Both the position numbers and the translations under genes were made by a program. Under the pieces are notes generated by a model that worked only from the letters and a program-made list of their open reading frames with translations, was not told the DNA's origin and did not search any database. A stretch of DNA of 64,000 nucleotides, taken from Octopus vulgaris. Taxonomy: Eukaryota. This document shows, piece by piece, positions 5,812-62,410 of this stretch. The DNA is taken from positions 55,490,001 to 55,554,000 of the forward strand of contig OX597825.1 of NCBI GenBank assembly GCA_951406725.2. Direction: 5' to 3'. Numbering within the stretch: position 1 is the stretch's first letter; each line of letters begins with the position of its first letter.

Positions 5812-7355
5812 CACCCAGAACCATGCTTAATAGCTTAGGAGTGAAATTTAGGATTTCTCGGTTTTCTATGAATTGATTTTGATAAACTTTTTCCCTGGTT
5901 TGTATACTATGGCAGCACCATTGTTATGTTTTCATTATTCTGTTTAATGTTCTTTCTTTTTTACTTCAGATTCTTCAGTTTTTGGGTGAACCACGCTAAT
6001 AGCATCCCTCCTCTCTAAGAACAATGGGACATGGAAAAGGCTTTAACTATGAAAAATAGTCTGCTGTCATCAAGGAAAGGCCTAAATGCACCTCTCTTCA
6101 TGTCATTGCAGAGAAGTTAGGTTGCCATGTGGAGATGGTTTGACAATTCCTGAAAGACCCTTCATCAAGGAAAAAACGATCTGATTGTGGGGCCTTCAAG
6201 ACTGTAACAACTAGTGATTTAAGGAATATTGGCTGCAAGTTACATGGGAAACCTGGACAAACAAGCAAAACCATTTTCACCACCTCCGGACTTCCTCATG
6301 TACTGAAAACCACTAGAAATCACATTGTTATGACCATGGCTTCCATGCAAGAATCCCTGAATCTACCTCCTTTAATACCCCATCACAGGAATTTGAGGCT
6401 TCAATGGACCCAAAAGTACATGACATTAGACATGAGTTGTGCTCTGTTCACTGACAAAACCAGGGCAACCCTTAACAATTGGACAAATGGTTGGTTATAT
6501 TTTGGAGATGAGCATCAACAATGTTTACCATGTCAACAACAGGGTGGAGGAGTCATGTTGTAGGCTGGTATTATTGAGGACAGACTTGTTGGCCCAGTCA
6601 GGGTGCCTGAAGGTGTTAAAGTGACCGCAGCCAACTACTGCAATCTCCTGAAGGAGATCTTGGATCTCTGGCTAGATGACATACCACTGTCACTTCTAAG
6701 GAATCTCATATTCATGCATGACAATGCTCCCTCCCACTCTCCTAGGACCACCCAAACATTACTAGGGTCTTATGGCATACAAGGGGAAAGGCTGATGGTG
6801 TGGGTGCCAGCGTCTCCATATCTCAAACCTAGCGTAAATATTTGGCCCATCATTAAAGAAGATGTTTATGCCAATGGACGCCAATTTACATCAAAAGATC
6901 TCTTATGGGTGACCATCAAAGCTGCAGCAGAAGTAGTCCAACCTGCTACAATTAACAAATTGACAGATCCATGACTAATAAAGTTTTTGAAATTATCTAT
7001 TGAAATGGCACACATGTAGTTAAATAATTCATTATGTCAATAAATATTATAATATTATTATGGTTTTCTGTTAAATCTATTCTCAATGTTTGCTTAATAT
7101 GTATAATTACCTTTAATTTTCTGAAAAAAAAAATGTCTAGATGGACTATTTTCATTCAAAAGCTATTAGCATGGTTCACCCAAAAACTGAAAAATCTGAA
7201 ATAAAAAAGAAAGGACATTACACAGAATAATGGAAACATAACAATGATGTTGCCATAGTGTATGAACCAGCTGGGGAAAGTTTTATCAAAATCAATTCAC
7301 AGAAAACTGAGAAATCCTAAATTTCACTCTTAAGCTATTAGCATGGTTCTGGGTT
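5812..7355 (+). mobile_element. Full-length decayed Tc1-family DNA transposon (DD37E/TRT-like) with ~192-bp IR/DR-type TIRs and TA target duplication
   Basis: TIRs at 5812-6003 and 7162-7355, with TA on both sides (5810-11, 7356-57). The motif aaccatgctaatagc occurs at both ends of each TIR. Confidence 0.92.
6024..7026 (+). pseudogene. Tc1-like transposase pseudogene (DD37E spacing)
   Basis: LFTDKTRATL, QQGGGVML*AGI, FMHDNAPSH and WVPASPYLKPSVNIW (decayed WPPxSPDLNPIENIW); 37 residues between the second D and the E position (now GTA, Val); several stops. Confidence 0.88.
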
Positions 7356-8182: not shown

Positions 8183-8264
8183 GCCTCTGATGAGATTTTG
8201 CCTAATATAATGATTTAATAATTGCTATTTTAATCTTTAGGCTTAATTGAAACAGCTGTAAGAG
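8183..8264 (+). ncRNA. Type-I hammerhead-ribozyme motif, PLE type, long helix II
   Basis: CTGATGA 8187-93; helix II gatt..gcctaa / ttaggc..aatt; GAAA 8249-52; palindromic helix III ACAGCTGT; GUA cleavage triplet; helix I is weak. Confidence 0.6.
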
Positions 8265-9920: not shown

Positions 9921-10336
9921 GGCGCAGGAGTGGATGTGTGATAAGTAGCTTGTTTACCAACCACATGGTTCCAGGTTCAGTCCCACTGTGTGGCACCTTG
10001 GGCAAGTGTCTTCTACTATAGCCTCGGGCCGACCAAAGCCTTGTGAGTGGATTTGGTAGATGGAAACTGAAAGAAGCCCATTGTATAAATGTATATGTAT
10101 ATATATATGTGTGTGTGTTTGTATGTCTGTGTTTGTCCCCCCCCCCCCCCCAACATTGCCTGACAACCGATGCTGGTGTGTTTATGCCCTGTACCTTAGC
10201 GGTTCGGCAAAAGAGACTGAGAGAATAAGTACTAGGCTTACAAAGAATAAGTCCTGGGGGTCGATTTGCTTGACTAAAGGTGGTGCTCCAGTATGGCCGC
10301 AGTCAAATGACTGAAACAAGTAAAAAGAGTAAAGAG
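9921..10336 (+). mobile_element. Full-length tRNA-derived CORE-type SINE (family 2, OR2-like) with internal microsatellite
   Basis: Head ggcgcaggagtggatgtgtgataag..ggttcagtccc; CORE-like gtggcaccttgggcaagtgtctt; tail ..ggccgcagtcaaatgactgaaacaagtaaaa. Confidence 0.85.
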
Positions 10337-10337
10337 T

Positions 10338-10411
10338 ATATTGGCTTTTGGTGCACAATGCACTCTGCTAGCAATATAAATAAGAGTGCATTTTGCACCA
10401 AAAGCCAATAT
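10338..10411. mobile_element. 74-bp palindromic miniature element / hairpin
   Basis: 29-bp arms atattggcttttggtgcacaatgcactct / agagtgcattttgcaccaaaagccaatat with one mismatch and a 16-nt loop. Confidence 0.75.
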
Positions 10412-10820
10412 GAGGGTTTCTTTCATGGTAACTACTGCAGTACATTTTTTTCTAACAGAACATTCATGTTTAAGTAGGGATAAATATTACATCTTGGTAT
10501 TAAAACTGTCTCTGTCACTAATATACATTAATAAATAAACAAATGAATAAATAAGTATATGTATATATACATGCATACATACATACACACATATATGCAT
10601 CTTCATCATCCTCATTTTTTAATATCTGATTTCCATGCTGGCAAGCCAGAGGACAGCAACAGTCTTTAGTGTCAGATTCTGCATGATTCCTGTGATTAGA
10701 TGCCCCTCCTAAATCCAACAACAGAATGTATTGGATGCTATTTAGATAAATATATATATATATATGATAATGCAAACGGGCTGAAGTTCACTACAGCTGT
10801 TTCAGACACATTTTTCTTTT

Positions 10821-11186
10821 ACTCTTTTCACTCTTTTACTCGTTTCAGTCGTTTGACAGTGGCCATGCTGGAGCACCGCCTTTCGTCGAGCAAACTGACA
10901 CCAGGACTTATTCTTTGTAAGCCTAGTACTTATTCTATCAGTTGCTTTTGCCGAACTGCTAAGTTACGGGGATGTAAACACACCAGCATCGGTTGTCGAA
11001 TGATGTTGAGGGGCCAAACACAGACACACAAACATATACACACATGCATATATATATTTATATATATGTATATATATATATATATACATATATATGACGG
11101 ACTTCTTTCAGTTTCCATGAATGAAATCCACTCACAAGGCTCTGGTCGGCCTGAGGCTATAGTAGAAGACACTTGCCCAAGGTGCC
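10821..11186 (-). mobile_element. CORE-type SINE family 2, inverted relative to 9921-10336
   Basis: Reverse complement of the family-2 tail and CORE segment. Confidence 0.85.
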
Positions 11187-11311
11187 AATCAATTATATCA
11201 TGTAAAAGAAAGAAACATTTTCTTCAGGTGCCCAAAATTTGGCATTTAGGATTATCAACGCAAACATTTTTAAAAAAATGTATTTTGACTCCCTCATCTT
11301 AGTGCTAGTTG

Positions 11312-15955: not shown

Positions 15956-16182
15956 GGAGTAAACACATAAATGTGAAACAAGGTGGAAAAAAGAGTACTC
16001 AAATACCAGTGGTAGAGTAATATGCTTTATTTTAAGCAGCAGAAAATTCAACAAAATCTGTTACTCTGAGTTTCTCGTTGCCGTTCATCAGACAGTTTTT
16101 GCTAGCAAAAACTGTCTGATGAACGGCAACGAGAAACTCAGAGTAACAGATTTTGTTGAATTTTCTGCTGCTTAAAATAAAG
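15953..16182 (-). mobile_element. PLE pseudo-LTR unit with a perfect 158-bp foldback (16025-16182), inserted in (TA)n
   Basis: Exact 79-bp arms centred on gct|agc with no spacer, plus a unique tail at 15953-16024; TA repeats on both sides. Confidence 0.88.
16106..16155 (+). ncRNA. Type-I hammerhead motif; mirror copy on the minus strand at 16052-16101
   Basis: Helix I caaaaactgt/acagattttg; CTGATGA 16116-22; short helix II cg-gcaa-cg; GAAA 16133-36; helix III actc/gagt; GUA site 16143-45. Confidence 0.7.
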
Positions 16183-17781: not shown

Positions 17782-17927
17782 TCATCATCATCATCATCGT
17801 TTAGCGTCCGTTTTCCATGCTAGCATGGGTTGGACGGTTCTACTGGGGTCTGTGAAGCCAGAAGGCTTCATCAGGCCCAGTCAAATCTGGCAGTGTTTCT
17901 ACGGCTGGATGCCCTTCCTAACGCCAA
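17778..17927 (-). mobile_element. Young RTE 3'-tail copy in (TA)n
   Basis: Appears identical to 30421-30570 outside the (ATC)n tail. Confidence 0.85.
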
Positions 17928-18001
17928 TGTGCCCTTATATATATATATATATATTACATACATATAAGAGGGCTGTCCACCTAGTGGTCATCCCTCTTAT
18001 A

Positions 18002-18049
<48 letters not shown>

Positions 18050-18054
<5 letters not shown>

Positions 18055-18746
18055 AGACCAGGCAGGAATGCCTTTCCTCCCTTGGACACAAAGACCTGTT
18101 GAGGCAAGCGAAGTCGATATAGAACCTCATCCGACGACAGGCACCCATGCCAAACCCCTTTGCTTGCGAAGACATGTTGGGGCAAGTGAAAGCGAAATCG
18201 AAATCGAATTGAACCAGCCAGGATCCCTGGTCTGGTGGTACGTAAAAAGCACTATCCGACTCGTGGCCGATGCCAGCGCCGCCTCCACTGGCTTCCGTGC
18301 CGGTGGCACGTAATATACACCAATCCGACCGTACGACAGGCACCCATGCCAACCCCTTTGCTTGCGAAGACATGTTGGGGCAAGCGAAATCGAAATCGAA
18401 TTGAACCAGCCAGGATCCCTGGTCTGGTGGTACGTAAAAAGCACTATCTGACTCGTGGCCGATGCCAACTCCGCCTCGACTGGCTTCCATGCCGGTGGCA
18501 CATAAAATACACCAATCCAACCGTGGCCGTTGCCAGCTTCGCCTGGCACCTGTGCAGGTGGCACGTAAAATGCACCCACTACACTCACGGAGTGGTTGAC
18601 GTTAGGAAGGGCATCCAGCTGTAGAAACATTGCCAGATAAGACTGGAGCCTGGTGCAGCCTTCTGGCTTCCCAGATCCCCGGTCGAACCGTCCAACCCAT
18701 GCTAGCATGGAGAACCGACGTTAAACGATGATGATGATGATGATGA
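18050..18746 (+). mobile_element. RTE LINE 3' UTR with internal ~199-bp tandem duplication and (GAT)n tail
   Basis: Copies at 18134-18332 and 18333-18524; CpG-rich; ends ggaagggcatccagctgtagaaa..gacgttaaacgatgatgat. Confidence 0.85.
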
Positions 18747-18769
18747 TAGAGAGAGAGAGAGAGAGTTTT

Positions 18770-19170
18770 GCTTGTTTTTGTCATTAGACTGCAGCCCATT
18801 CTGGGGCATCATCTTAAAGAATTTTTCTCAAATGAACTGACCACAGCCCTTTATTTATTGATTGGTCTTTTAAAACCTGGTACTTAATCTATCAGTTCCT
18901 TTTGCTAAAGTGCTAAGTTATGGGGAAATAAACACACAAACACCAGATGTTAAGTTATAGTGAGAGCAAACACAAACTCAAAGACACACATACACATGCA
19001 TATACACATATAGAAACTGTAAGTGACAGGCTTATTTCTGTTTCTGCTGACCAAATCCACTCACAAAACTTGGGGCTATAGTAGATGACACCTGCCCAAT
19101 GTGCCACACAGTGGGACTGAACCCACAACCATGTAGCTGGGAAGTATTCTATCCACAAAATCATGCCTGC
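18770..19170 (-). mobile_element. CORE-type SINE family 2, diverged
   Basis: Reverse-strand tail, CORE and head motifs. Confidence 0.75.
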
Positions 19171-19227
<57 letters not shown>

Positions 19228-19269
19228 TCTTTCTCACAATATATATGTATATATATAAGTATATCTAAG

Positions 19270-19300
<31 letters not shown>

Positions 19301-19567
19301 TGTGTTGTATGTCTTGTACTCTGTTTTTCCGTTATTTAAAAAGAATGTCCATTTCCTTGGTTTTGTTTTTATGTTTTCGTTTCTCATTGTGTTCCACGTT
19401 TTTTTGGTGTCCTGTACCCATATATGCATGTATATATACATATAGATGTAGGTACGTACATATATGTATGTATATATACATATGTTTTATTTATTATTTT
19501 GTTATTATATGATGGAACGCCACGCATCCACTTCCAAGTAAGTTTTATCTATACACATATATATATC

Positions 19568-20150
19568 TCATCACCATCATTTTCATTTAATATCTGTTCT
19601 CCATGCTGGCATGGGTCGGATGGCTTGACAGGAGCTGAAGACTGCCCAGGTTCTATGCCTGCTTTGGCATGGTTTCTACAGCTGGATGCCCTTCCTAATG
19701 ACGACCACTTTACAGAATGTACTGGGTGCTTTTACACAGCACCTGCACAGGTGCATTTACATGGCACAGTTTCAGGTGCTTTTTACATGGCACCAGCACT
19801 CATGAGCCCACAAGAATAGGAATGCTCACCTGGAGAGCAATGCAGGGAGTAAGGCTGTATGCAAGACAACCATGCTTTTACTTAGCTTGATACGTCTTTT
19901 CAAGCACAGCAAACTGCCAGGAGTCTCGGTCCCCTGTCACCCCCTCTGTGAGCCCCAACGTCCAATGATCCTTTCTTACCACTTCATCATGCATTTTCTT
20001 GGGTCCACTCCTTCCCCATGTTCCCTCTACAATTAGAGATTGCCACCTCTTGAAGCAAATGCTTTCATTCATACACATCACATGGCCATACTAGTGCAGT
20101 TTTCTCTCTTACACACTACATCTGATGCCTCACATACCCAGTTTCTCTCA
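19568..20150 (-). mobile_element. RTE LINE 3' end (ORF end plus 3' UTR)
   Basis: ERKLH*YGHVMCM..VEGTWGRSGPKK..DRDSWQFAVLEKT..K* followed by the ggaagggcatccagctgtagaaa UTR. Confidence 0.85.
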
Positions 20151-60809: not shown

Positions 60810-61130
60810 GTGGCTCACATGGCTAAGTGGTTAGAGCATCGAGCTTACGATTGTGAGGTTGTGAGTTCGATTCTCAGACCGGGCTGCAAGACACTTTATT
60901 TCACATTGCTCCAGTTTACTCAGCTGTAGAAATGAGTTATGACGTCACTGGTGTCAAGCTGTATCGATCGGCCTTTGCCTTTCCCTCGGATAACATCAGT
61001 GGTGTGGAGAGGGGAGGTTGGTATGCATGGGCAACTGCTGGCCTTCCATAAACAACCTTGCCCGGACTTGTACCTCAGAGGGAAACCTTCTAGGTGCAAT
61101 CCCATGGTCATCCATGACCGAAGGGGATCT
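60810..61130 (+). mobile_element. SINE family 3, tail type b
   Basis: Paralog of 37256-37548. Confidence 0.82.
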
Positions 61131-61372
61131 CCCATTCCCCTATAGATTTTCTCATATATATGTATATGTGGGCAGGGGGTGTACATACTTACAGTATCCT
61201 ACCAACAACTGACAACTAAAGGTTGTTTTACCCAAATTTGAGCTCAATACTAAGTACCTAGCCACTGCTGACATCCTACTTATTGATATACCTAGATTCT
61301 TATGAATCCTGTAACTGATCACTATATATGTGTGTGTGTGTGTGTATATGAATGTATTTATTTATATGCATA

Positions 61373-61411
<39 letters not shown>

Positions 61412-61414
<3 letters not shown>

Positions 61415-61760
61415 AATGAAAGAATGGAGTCGAACGACGATTTTGCTCTTCATGGTGCTGACATAAGTTCCTTGTCTTTCCTGATGAGATGGCGGCATAA
61501 TGCACCCTTTATTCCTTCAGAATTAGGAATATGCAGCCTTCGAAACATGTGTCGAGAGTAAAGGAATTTTGTTAAAATCGTCGTTCGACTCCATTCTTTC
61601 ATTTATTCATAGTTAAAAAAAACACACAAATTTACACACGAGAACACGGGATCCCTGCCCTTGGCATATAGCTTCAACTGTGTTTTCTGATGTGAATTTG
61701 CTACCCAGGTATCGGTTAACCGAATTATCCATACTAGGATAATTCATTCACCTTCTTAAA
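61412..61760 (+). mobile_element. PLE pseudo-LTR-like unit in (TA)n with a perfect 33-bp inverted repeat
   Basis: 61412-61444 is the exact reverse complement of 61574-61606; the repeat encloses a hammerhead. Confidence 0.85.
61468..61566 (+). ncRNA. Type-I hammerhead ribozyme with canonical core and GUC site
   Basis: Helix I ttcctt..ctttc / gagag..aaggaa; CTGATGA 61481-87; extended helix II closed by G-C; GAAA 61542-45; helix III aca/tgt; GTC 61551-53. Confidence 0.8.
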
Positions 61761-62410
61761 TATATATATATATATATATATATGAATGTATGTATGTATT
61801 TATTTATCTATATGCATATGTGTGTGTATATTATATATATATATATATTATTTACATGCAAACACAGATAAGTGGCAGAGATGATTAGATTGATCAATAG
61901 ATCAAGCAGCAGCGAAAAAAAAATCAATATGAAAAAGGTATGTGGTGACAGTATAAACACCACGACATCACTTCACTCATTTTCACATACATCACACTAT
62001 CCCCATCACCACCTTTGTTAACAAACTCGCCACCATCACAGCTTCTGTGTCCACTGCCACAATACCAATACCACCACGACCACCACCAACGCAGTACACC
62101 CACACAACTCCACATTCATACAACATCACATCGATGCAACATTCCACCTCACCATTACCAATAAAACAATGAACATTCTAGCAAGATAAATGGAATATGT
62201 TGAAAAGTTATTTCCACATTAAGTATTAGCAATAACCTCATTAAATATAAATATGACCAGTGTGAGCAATGAGTGCTACAGTCTCTCTCTCTCTCTCTCT
62301 CTTTCGCTCTCTCCTGAAATATAAATTTGACCAGCGTGAGTAGCTTGTTCTTTTGAGCTTCTCTCTTCTTTCTCTCTTTCTTACTCTCCCTCTCTATGTC
62401 TCTTTCTGTC

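Follow-up and report, generated by a model that had tools for sequence, protein, structure and literature searches.

The hammerhead-bearing repeat at the right-hand end of the window, the window being the whole 64,000-nt stretch of Octopus vulgaris DNA analysed here (contig OX597825.1, positions 55,490,001 to 55,554,000), is best explained as a 5′-truncated Penelope-like element (PLE) that inserted, with two arms, into a (TA)n tract; its short inverted arm is likely a second cDNA made on the opposite target strand. We put the probability of this reading at roughly 0.8. Taken alone, the window copy is what elements of a known kind ordinarily produce, and the literature already describes all three of its features, the inverted copy, the tail and the PLE hammerhead. 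The argument is carried by the relatives of this copy.

The anatomy of the insertion is given in Table 1. The perfect 33-bp inverted repeat that had been called from the letters of this DNA is confirmed, with 33/33 positions complementary (61412–61444 against 61574–61606) and 129 nt between the arms, although the right arm, described as lying just downstream of the ribozyme, is indeed downstream but begins 21 nt past the cut site. The outer TAT of the inverted arm (61412–61444) could equally be target sequence. The direct copy (61441–61762) ends 40 nt short of the putative transcription start of the family, and the long stem-loop within its tail (61627–61700) is a candidate protein-binding element.

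Table 1. Coordinates of the PLE insertion and of its hammerhead motif (positions are those of the window)
Feature	Position	Strand	Remark
Left flank	61343..61411		Mixed microsatellite ending in (TA)n target
Inverted arm	61412..61444	-	33-nt second copy from proximal start (61606 equivalent)
Microhomology at inversion junction	61441..61444		4 nt, TTTT; arm / direct-copy 5′ end
Direct copy of PLE 3′ end	61441..61762	+	5′-truncated; pLTR and tail
Hammerhead motif	61465..61569	+	Type I, GUC; predicted cut after C61553
Hammerhead helix I	61476-61480/61554-61558		Extension 61465-61473/61561-61569
Hammerhead core	CUGAUGA 61481-61487; G10.1 61488 / C11.1 61541; GAA 61542-61544; A15.1 61545; GUC 61551-61553		
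Hammerhead helix II	61488-61541		Long, 54-nt domain
Hammerhead helix III	61545-61552		Self-complementary loop
Right arm	61574..61606	+	Ordinary pLTR between ribozyme and proximal start site
Proximal start site(s)	61604..61611	+	UA steps, 61606 or 61611 equivalents; predicted unstructured
Tail	61607..61762	+	About 150 nt
Long stem-loop in tail	61627..61700	+	z = -4.15
Perfect hairpin	61722..61745	+	9 bp, just 5′ of distal start site
Distal start site(s)	61757..61762	+	UA steps, 61758 or 61762 equivalents
Right flank	61763..61830		(TA)n target, then imperfect repeat of left flank

The window copy is young, as the sequence-only reading had supposed, though not untouched. Compared with what most of its 29 nearest copies have, it differs at 3 of 318 nt. 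The CpGs on which that reading relied are partly preserved, the direct copy still containing 10, yet all three differences (61519, 61679, and 61691) are CpG decays. The two flanks (61343–61411 and 61763–61830) are imperfect copies of each other over about 65 nt, which may reflect either an unusually long duplication of the target or a local duplication that predates the insertion. Target-site duplication as a trait of the family was rejected, with complex 12-mers shared between flanks in 3/46 loci only (one, one, and, the most, eight at the window locus). Four sequencing runs contained neither an empty-site allele nor a bridging contig for the window locus.

Positions 61441–61760 belong to a dispersed repeat with 3355 candidate copies, 40 of which were scored at 93–99% identity, and an exact 23-mer of the family occurs 1710 times. 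The association of other copies with PLEs, raised as a check on the earlier reading, is borne out by L032, which is 97.8% identical to the window copy over the repeat, and by L094, which is 88% identical to L032; both lead into reverse transcriptase (RT) and GIY-YIG frames. L094 is complete: it opens with (TA)n and an inverted arm of 124 bp, followed by a partial repeat, the 5′ UTR, an ORF of about 880 codons with one stop, the 3′ UTR, the hammerhead, the tail, and again (TA)n, for a unit of ~3.5 kb from ORF start to distal end. In this copy, as well as in L099, L101, and L104, the repeat stands both before and after the ORF in a partial tandem arrangement (pLTRs). Another copy, L031, shares the design of the window copy and has an arm of 1828 bp starting at the same base. 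In full-length copies, the tail continues into the 5′ UTR and the ORF starts ~50 nt beyond the distal site; among the copies examined, no full-length member of the youngest subfamily was found. A candidate GT..AG intron of 65 nt is present in the 5′ UTR of the six copies shown (61709–61762 in the window, 813–877 in L094), with the distal start site inside it, ~15–20 nt before the AG. Contigs from four runs guessed to be RNA, a kind of evidence that cannot show starts, ends, or strand, span the repeat and the ORF start with no join across this candidate intron.

The L094 protein carries RIRW at 35, DKT at 122, CxxC at 839, and CxH at 867, together with YRDD and YIG motifs. The Pfam GIY-YIG model matches the family protein at E = 0.003 and 18.2 bits, below its cut-off of 22.6, while the RT had no match in Pfam or in a PDB sequence search; its assignment follows from the motifs and from the divergence that has been described in print for RTs of the Hydra clade. 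The protein has 100 homologs (best E = 4e-114), one of them named from Argonauta hians, and for four homologs Pfam gave no useful name. A CxCX5C linker is present in 0/29 family stretches (several of them from one locus and some partial) versus 50/55 homologs, and an Asn-rich insert takes its place across the family (L094 2706–3254 and 28 other stretches). The closest homolog, P0001, has a similar Asn-rich insert, yet it retains the linker. In a quick unrooted tree of 41 rows, with no named reference or outgroup, the family groups with P0001 and P0003 (SH-aLRT 99), and since it thereby groups with a linker-bearing protein, loss of the linker is the simpler reading. Because the linker is absent, the family is provisionally filed, from its motifs, as a Hydra-like PLE rather than as Hydra. 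A literature search, with Repbase and most subscription papers lying outside it, returned nothing on the family or on the one-short/one-long rule set out below; the consensus sequences and Fig. S7 in the supplement of Craig et al. were covered by keyword, so that an existing annotation of the family, in that supplement or in another source, is conceivable.

Insertion ends were compared in the first 100 of the 1710 exact 23-mer matches, all on one contig and together representing 85 insertions, with arm ends read by hand from BLAST pieces (six cases had extra pieces). A short arm, starting at the proximal site, and a long arm, starting at the distal site, occur together in opposite orientation in 49 of these insertions; one has two long arms, none has two short arms, 25 are single-armed, and 10 are irregular. 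To the question of whether the inverted arm is fixed or variable among genomic copies, the answer is that arms differ in length, the shortest being about 30 bp and the longest 1828 bp, and that their start site (61606/61611 equivalent) is fixed. Long ends join (TA)n at the equivalents of 61758 or 61762, with ~150 nt between the two 3′ end sites, and all start sites are UA steps that have 2–3 nt in common with the target. For one form of the site, 391 exact (TA)n-proximal junctions were counted, and in 57/60 young-subfamily matches the distal end lies, by our own reading, within a few bases of a TA tract. The fixed start site and the two-armed architecture together support the earlier suggestion of the arm as a record of cDNA priming or integration. 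Not all short ends meet (TA)n: some, in L116, L128, L132, L144, and L158, adjoin (TC)n or (TATC)n, and in L116 and L158 a 5′ UTR/ORF-start piece from beyond the distal site stands between the two arms, meaning that the template RNA extended past the tail.

An alternative origin for the inverted arm is fold-back self-priming, proposed for rotifer Penelope elements (PMC3846280), whereby a single cDNA or antisense template folds on a microhomology and is copied into a head-to-head palindrome. Since the arm of the window copy lies wholly within the direct copy, a configuration seen in 19/49 two-armed insertions, this copy, taken by itself, could have arisen by fold-back, and the 4-nt microhomology at its inversion junction is in keeping with such an event. 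Near-perfect hairpins also speak for it: in 10/32 overlapping pairs the arms end ≤10 nt apart (2.8 expected by permutation, p = 5e-5), and in five of these they end ≤2 nt apart. Arms that stop together are also expected, however, if both cDNAs run to the same RNA 5′ end, and matching ends could come from hairpin formation or later repair as well. Fold-back is insufficient for the 17/49 insertions whose arms do not overlap, and in another 13/49 the short-start arm extends further 5′ than the long arm (the long copy extends further in 9/49, the class of the window copy). In 30/49 insertions, then, the short-start arm carries sequence that is missing from the long cDNA and is not a fold-back copy of it. 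Moreover, the outer end of the arm is fixed at UA steps and joins (TA)n just as a priming site would. Fold-back is thus an unlikely source of the arm; under the favoured origin as a second cDNA from the opposite strand, arms that overlap would call for either displacement of a strand or a second RNA molecule.

The 5′ ends of the same 100 matches are informative about the template. They are spread evenly across the first 160 nt above the anchor, after which 20/100 fall at −190..−161, two at −260..−191, and 28 beyond (Fisher p = 0.0015, in a sample that partly overlaps the loci from which the idea of a transcription start came). The drop-off occurs at a TCATT motif, which we take to be an initiator, and 6/30 young direct copies end at −182..−180. 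From these DNA ends alone, we infer that the edge marks a transcription start within the repeat, comparable to the internal promoter of the Drosophila virilis Penelope repeat (PMC2377424); alternatively, AT-rich microhomology could favour joins there. A footprint of ribozyme cutting was likewise sought in the genomic 5′ ends and was seen neither among the 100 matches, where 4/100 ends fall in the 10-nt bin of the cut site, nor genome-wide, where six matches end at the cut site versus six and one at control offsets, using unequally strict patterns and small counts. The missing pile-up fits the use of uncut RNA as the main substrate by a PLE protein in vitro (PMC11167929).

As to the ribozyme itself, the intact core described from sequence is present in full (CUGAUGA, GAA, and GUC), and so are the extended helices, with helix I comprising 5 bp, an internal loop in the predicted fold and a 9-bp extension, and helix II being long. 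The fold of 61460–61575 beats shuffles (z = −3.05), and our own strict type I descriptor finds a single site in the 64 kb, against 0–1 per shuffled window in 10 shuffles; an Rfam scan gave zero matches at the gathering score. Helix II of the window copy has a U-U mismatch (61490/61539) that is A-U in 32/41 aligned copies and is a trait of the young subfamily. The strict core is kept in 60/89 distinct family copies, and 91.5% of cells in the 41 aligned copies are paired in the hammerhead helices. Repeated two-sided changes affect a single pair in each of helices I and II among these related copies, a number of pairs no better than that in shuffles (248/500), and no partner was identified for a loop-loop contact between the two helices.

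Whether such a hammerhead would cut by itself is another matter. Helix III consists of just 2–3 bp with a predicted pairing of 0.01 in the monomer, its loop is self-complementary in young and older family forms, and a two-hammerhead fold reaches −63.2 kcal/mol versus −58.4 for two monomers at minimum; formation of helix III in this family is predicted for the dimer alone. The proposal that the single window copy is the best candidate for an active ribozyme is therefore doubtful: helix III pairing would depend on a second hammerhead, the locus contains a single one, its arm ending before the core is reached, and the copy is without the 40 nt that reach the putative transcription start. A stronger version, in which the inverted repeat is a working part of an active monomeric ribozyme and its rod clamps helix I to promote cutting, draws on the intact core and on the rod of −84.3 kcal/mol that forms in read-through RNA of the window locus, where the arm stacks on extended helix I. 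The arm is, however, absent from the RNA sequence of the element itself and its length is unconserved among copies, and adding it moves helix I pairing only from 0.92–0.95 to 0.95–0.98, leaving helix II unchanged and helix III at 0.01, so that the rod was rejected as a clamp and the arm can hardly be called a meaningful extension of helix I. Single minimal PLE hammerheads show little or no cleavage (PMC4209133) and cutting by the hammerhead of PAc, a Poseidon PLE of Anolis carolinensis, required protein (PMC11167929), which leaves a monomeric ribozyme of this kind very improbable. It is just as hard to credit the 320-nt unit as a non-LTR retrozyme in its own right, spreading via circular RNA monomers: its size, its type I hammerhead, the many copies of ~350 nt and the reported derivation of retrozymes from PLEs (10.64898/2026.07.22.740005) would fit, but the 85 sampled insertions include no head-to-tail array of the short unit, 28/100 units continue >260 nt upstream, many into the ORF, and the ends lie at two fixed sites instead of the cut site.

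The two-cDNA reading carries with it a probable mechanism. In this scheme, the element protein, probably as a dimer, would nick both strands within (TA)n; the target 3′ ends would anneal by 2–3 nt to UA, one at the distal and one at the proximal site. From each, synthesis would proceed towards the RNA 5′ end on a template left uncut by the hammerhead, often a short transcript from the internal promoter of the repeat. The two cDNAs would then stop and be joined through microhomology, which in the window copy would be TTTT, between a distal cDNA of ~320 nt and a proximal cDNA of 33 nt. Cutting by the hammerhead, predicted to require a dimer or help from protein, would probably serve to process tandem or read-through transcripts, and the rod would be a by-product, forming only in read-through RNA of the window locus. 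A purified PLE protein does nick and extend both strands, with two internal starts bounding the tail, a predicted dimer, and an uncut RNA (PMC11167929). In that study the two strands did not differ in start site in vitro, which leaves the rule of one start of each kind unpredicted. A bolder reading, to which we give a little less than even odds, treats the family as a natural record of PLE integration, in which a dimeric enzyme uses a different fixed site for each target strand on one uncut, promoter-proximal RNA and hits (TA)n without a Zn-finger linker. If so, the tail, the inverted copy, and the non-overlapping inversions would all be explained in one step; moreover, the linker would be unneeded for microsatellite targeting, with UA annealing over 2–3 nt, or the nuclease itself, being sufficient.

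A parallel outside PLEs is L1 twin priming, reportedly described by Ostertag and Kazazian in 2001, in which two cDNAs are said to arise from two target strands and to be joined through microhomology. The octopus family differs from this picture in that both priming sites are fixed and the arms often overlap, giving true palindromes. A literature search returned no paper linking L1 twin priming to PLE inversions.

Among PLEs, inverted 5′-truncated copies and a tail of 30–40 bp have been described as typical. The octopus family shares with the Hydra clade (Craig et al. 2021, PMC8557442) an RWK-type motif (RxRW), DKT where other elements have DKG, and CxxC and CxH around a conserved E/N, a C-terminal GIY-YIG without CCHH, a type I hammerhead at the 3′ end, (TA)n targets, and an inverted 5′-truncated copy. 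It differs in having an Asn-rich insert where that clade has the CxCX5C linker, a unit of ~3.5 kb rather than under 3 kb, a tail of ~150 nt rather than the 30–40 bp given for PLEs, and a hammerhead unlike that of the listed Hydra-1_oBim, with a much longer helix II. With PAc (Frangieh et al. 2024, PMC11167929) it has in common two internal starts bounding the tail, an AT-rich target, an uncut RNA template, and extension of both strands, observed for PAc in vitro. The PAc sites lie 111–118 nt inside the ORF, whereas the octopus sites are ~150 nt apart and precede the ORF start, share 2–3 nt with the target, and leave a genomic record of one site per strand.

The hammerheads of metazoans and PLEs (Cervera and de la Pena 2014, PMC4209133) share with the octopus motif the type I topology, G10.1-C11.1, and a short helix III with a self-complementary loop and a predicted dimer. 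Helix I (5 + 9 bp) and helix II (54-nt domain) of the octopus hammerhead are longer than in the minimal motif of that study, and, unlike the motifs described there, it has no extra base between A9 and G10.1. Finally, Penelope of D. virilis and Adineta vaga (PMC2377424, PMC3846280) resembles the family in its partial tandem and variable inverted terminal repeats, its internal promoter in the repeat, and, in A. vaga, its Asn-rich RT-EN inserts; in the octopus family the clade motifs are others, the insert removes the Zn-linker, and no intron is shown.

These comparisons matter because the formation of PLE tails and inverted ends was named as an open question in PMC8557442, and the single in vitro system (PMC11167929) does not explain inversions. 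With >1700 copies and a 150-nt tail, the two ends of the octopus family are easily distinguishable, and the family yields sharp predictions, i.e., one start site per strand, an uncut template, and a defined promoter start. It has been proposed in print that (TA)n targeting is driven by the linker, and the absence of the linker from this family has a bearing on that proposal. With its long tail, its lost linker, and its end statistics, the family is useful as a test case.

The window also contains other structures of related appearance. At 16025–16182, a second hammerhead-like element, from an unrelated family, forms a perfect 79-bp head-to-head palindrome with CTGATGA at 16116 and 16091; its right arm ends on (TA)n and its left arm continues into further sequence, which is the short/long pattern again. 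Its helix II is weak, and the strict descriptor scan did not list the element. Hammerhead-like words of another repeat family (CTGA-GA...GAAACAGCTGTA) occur at 8187, 16401 (− strand), 41943, and 60748. Just 5′ of the hammerhead copy, at 60811–61140, lies what is presumably a SINE-like repeat headed by a tRNA-like segment. Perfect inverted repeats of 20–36 bp, nested and up to 1.5 kb apart, are found at 5839–7329, 9991–11187, and 17814–19698, and these are probably inverted repeat copies.
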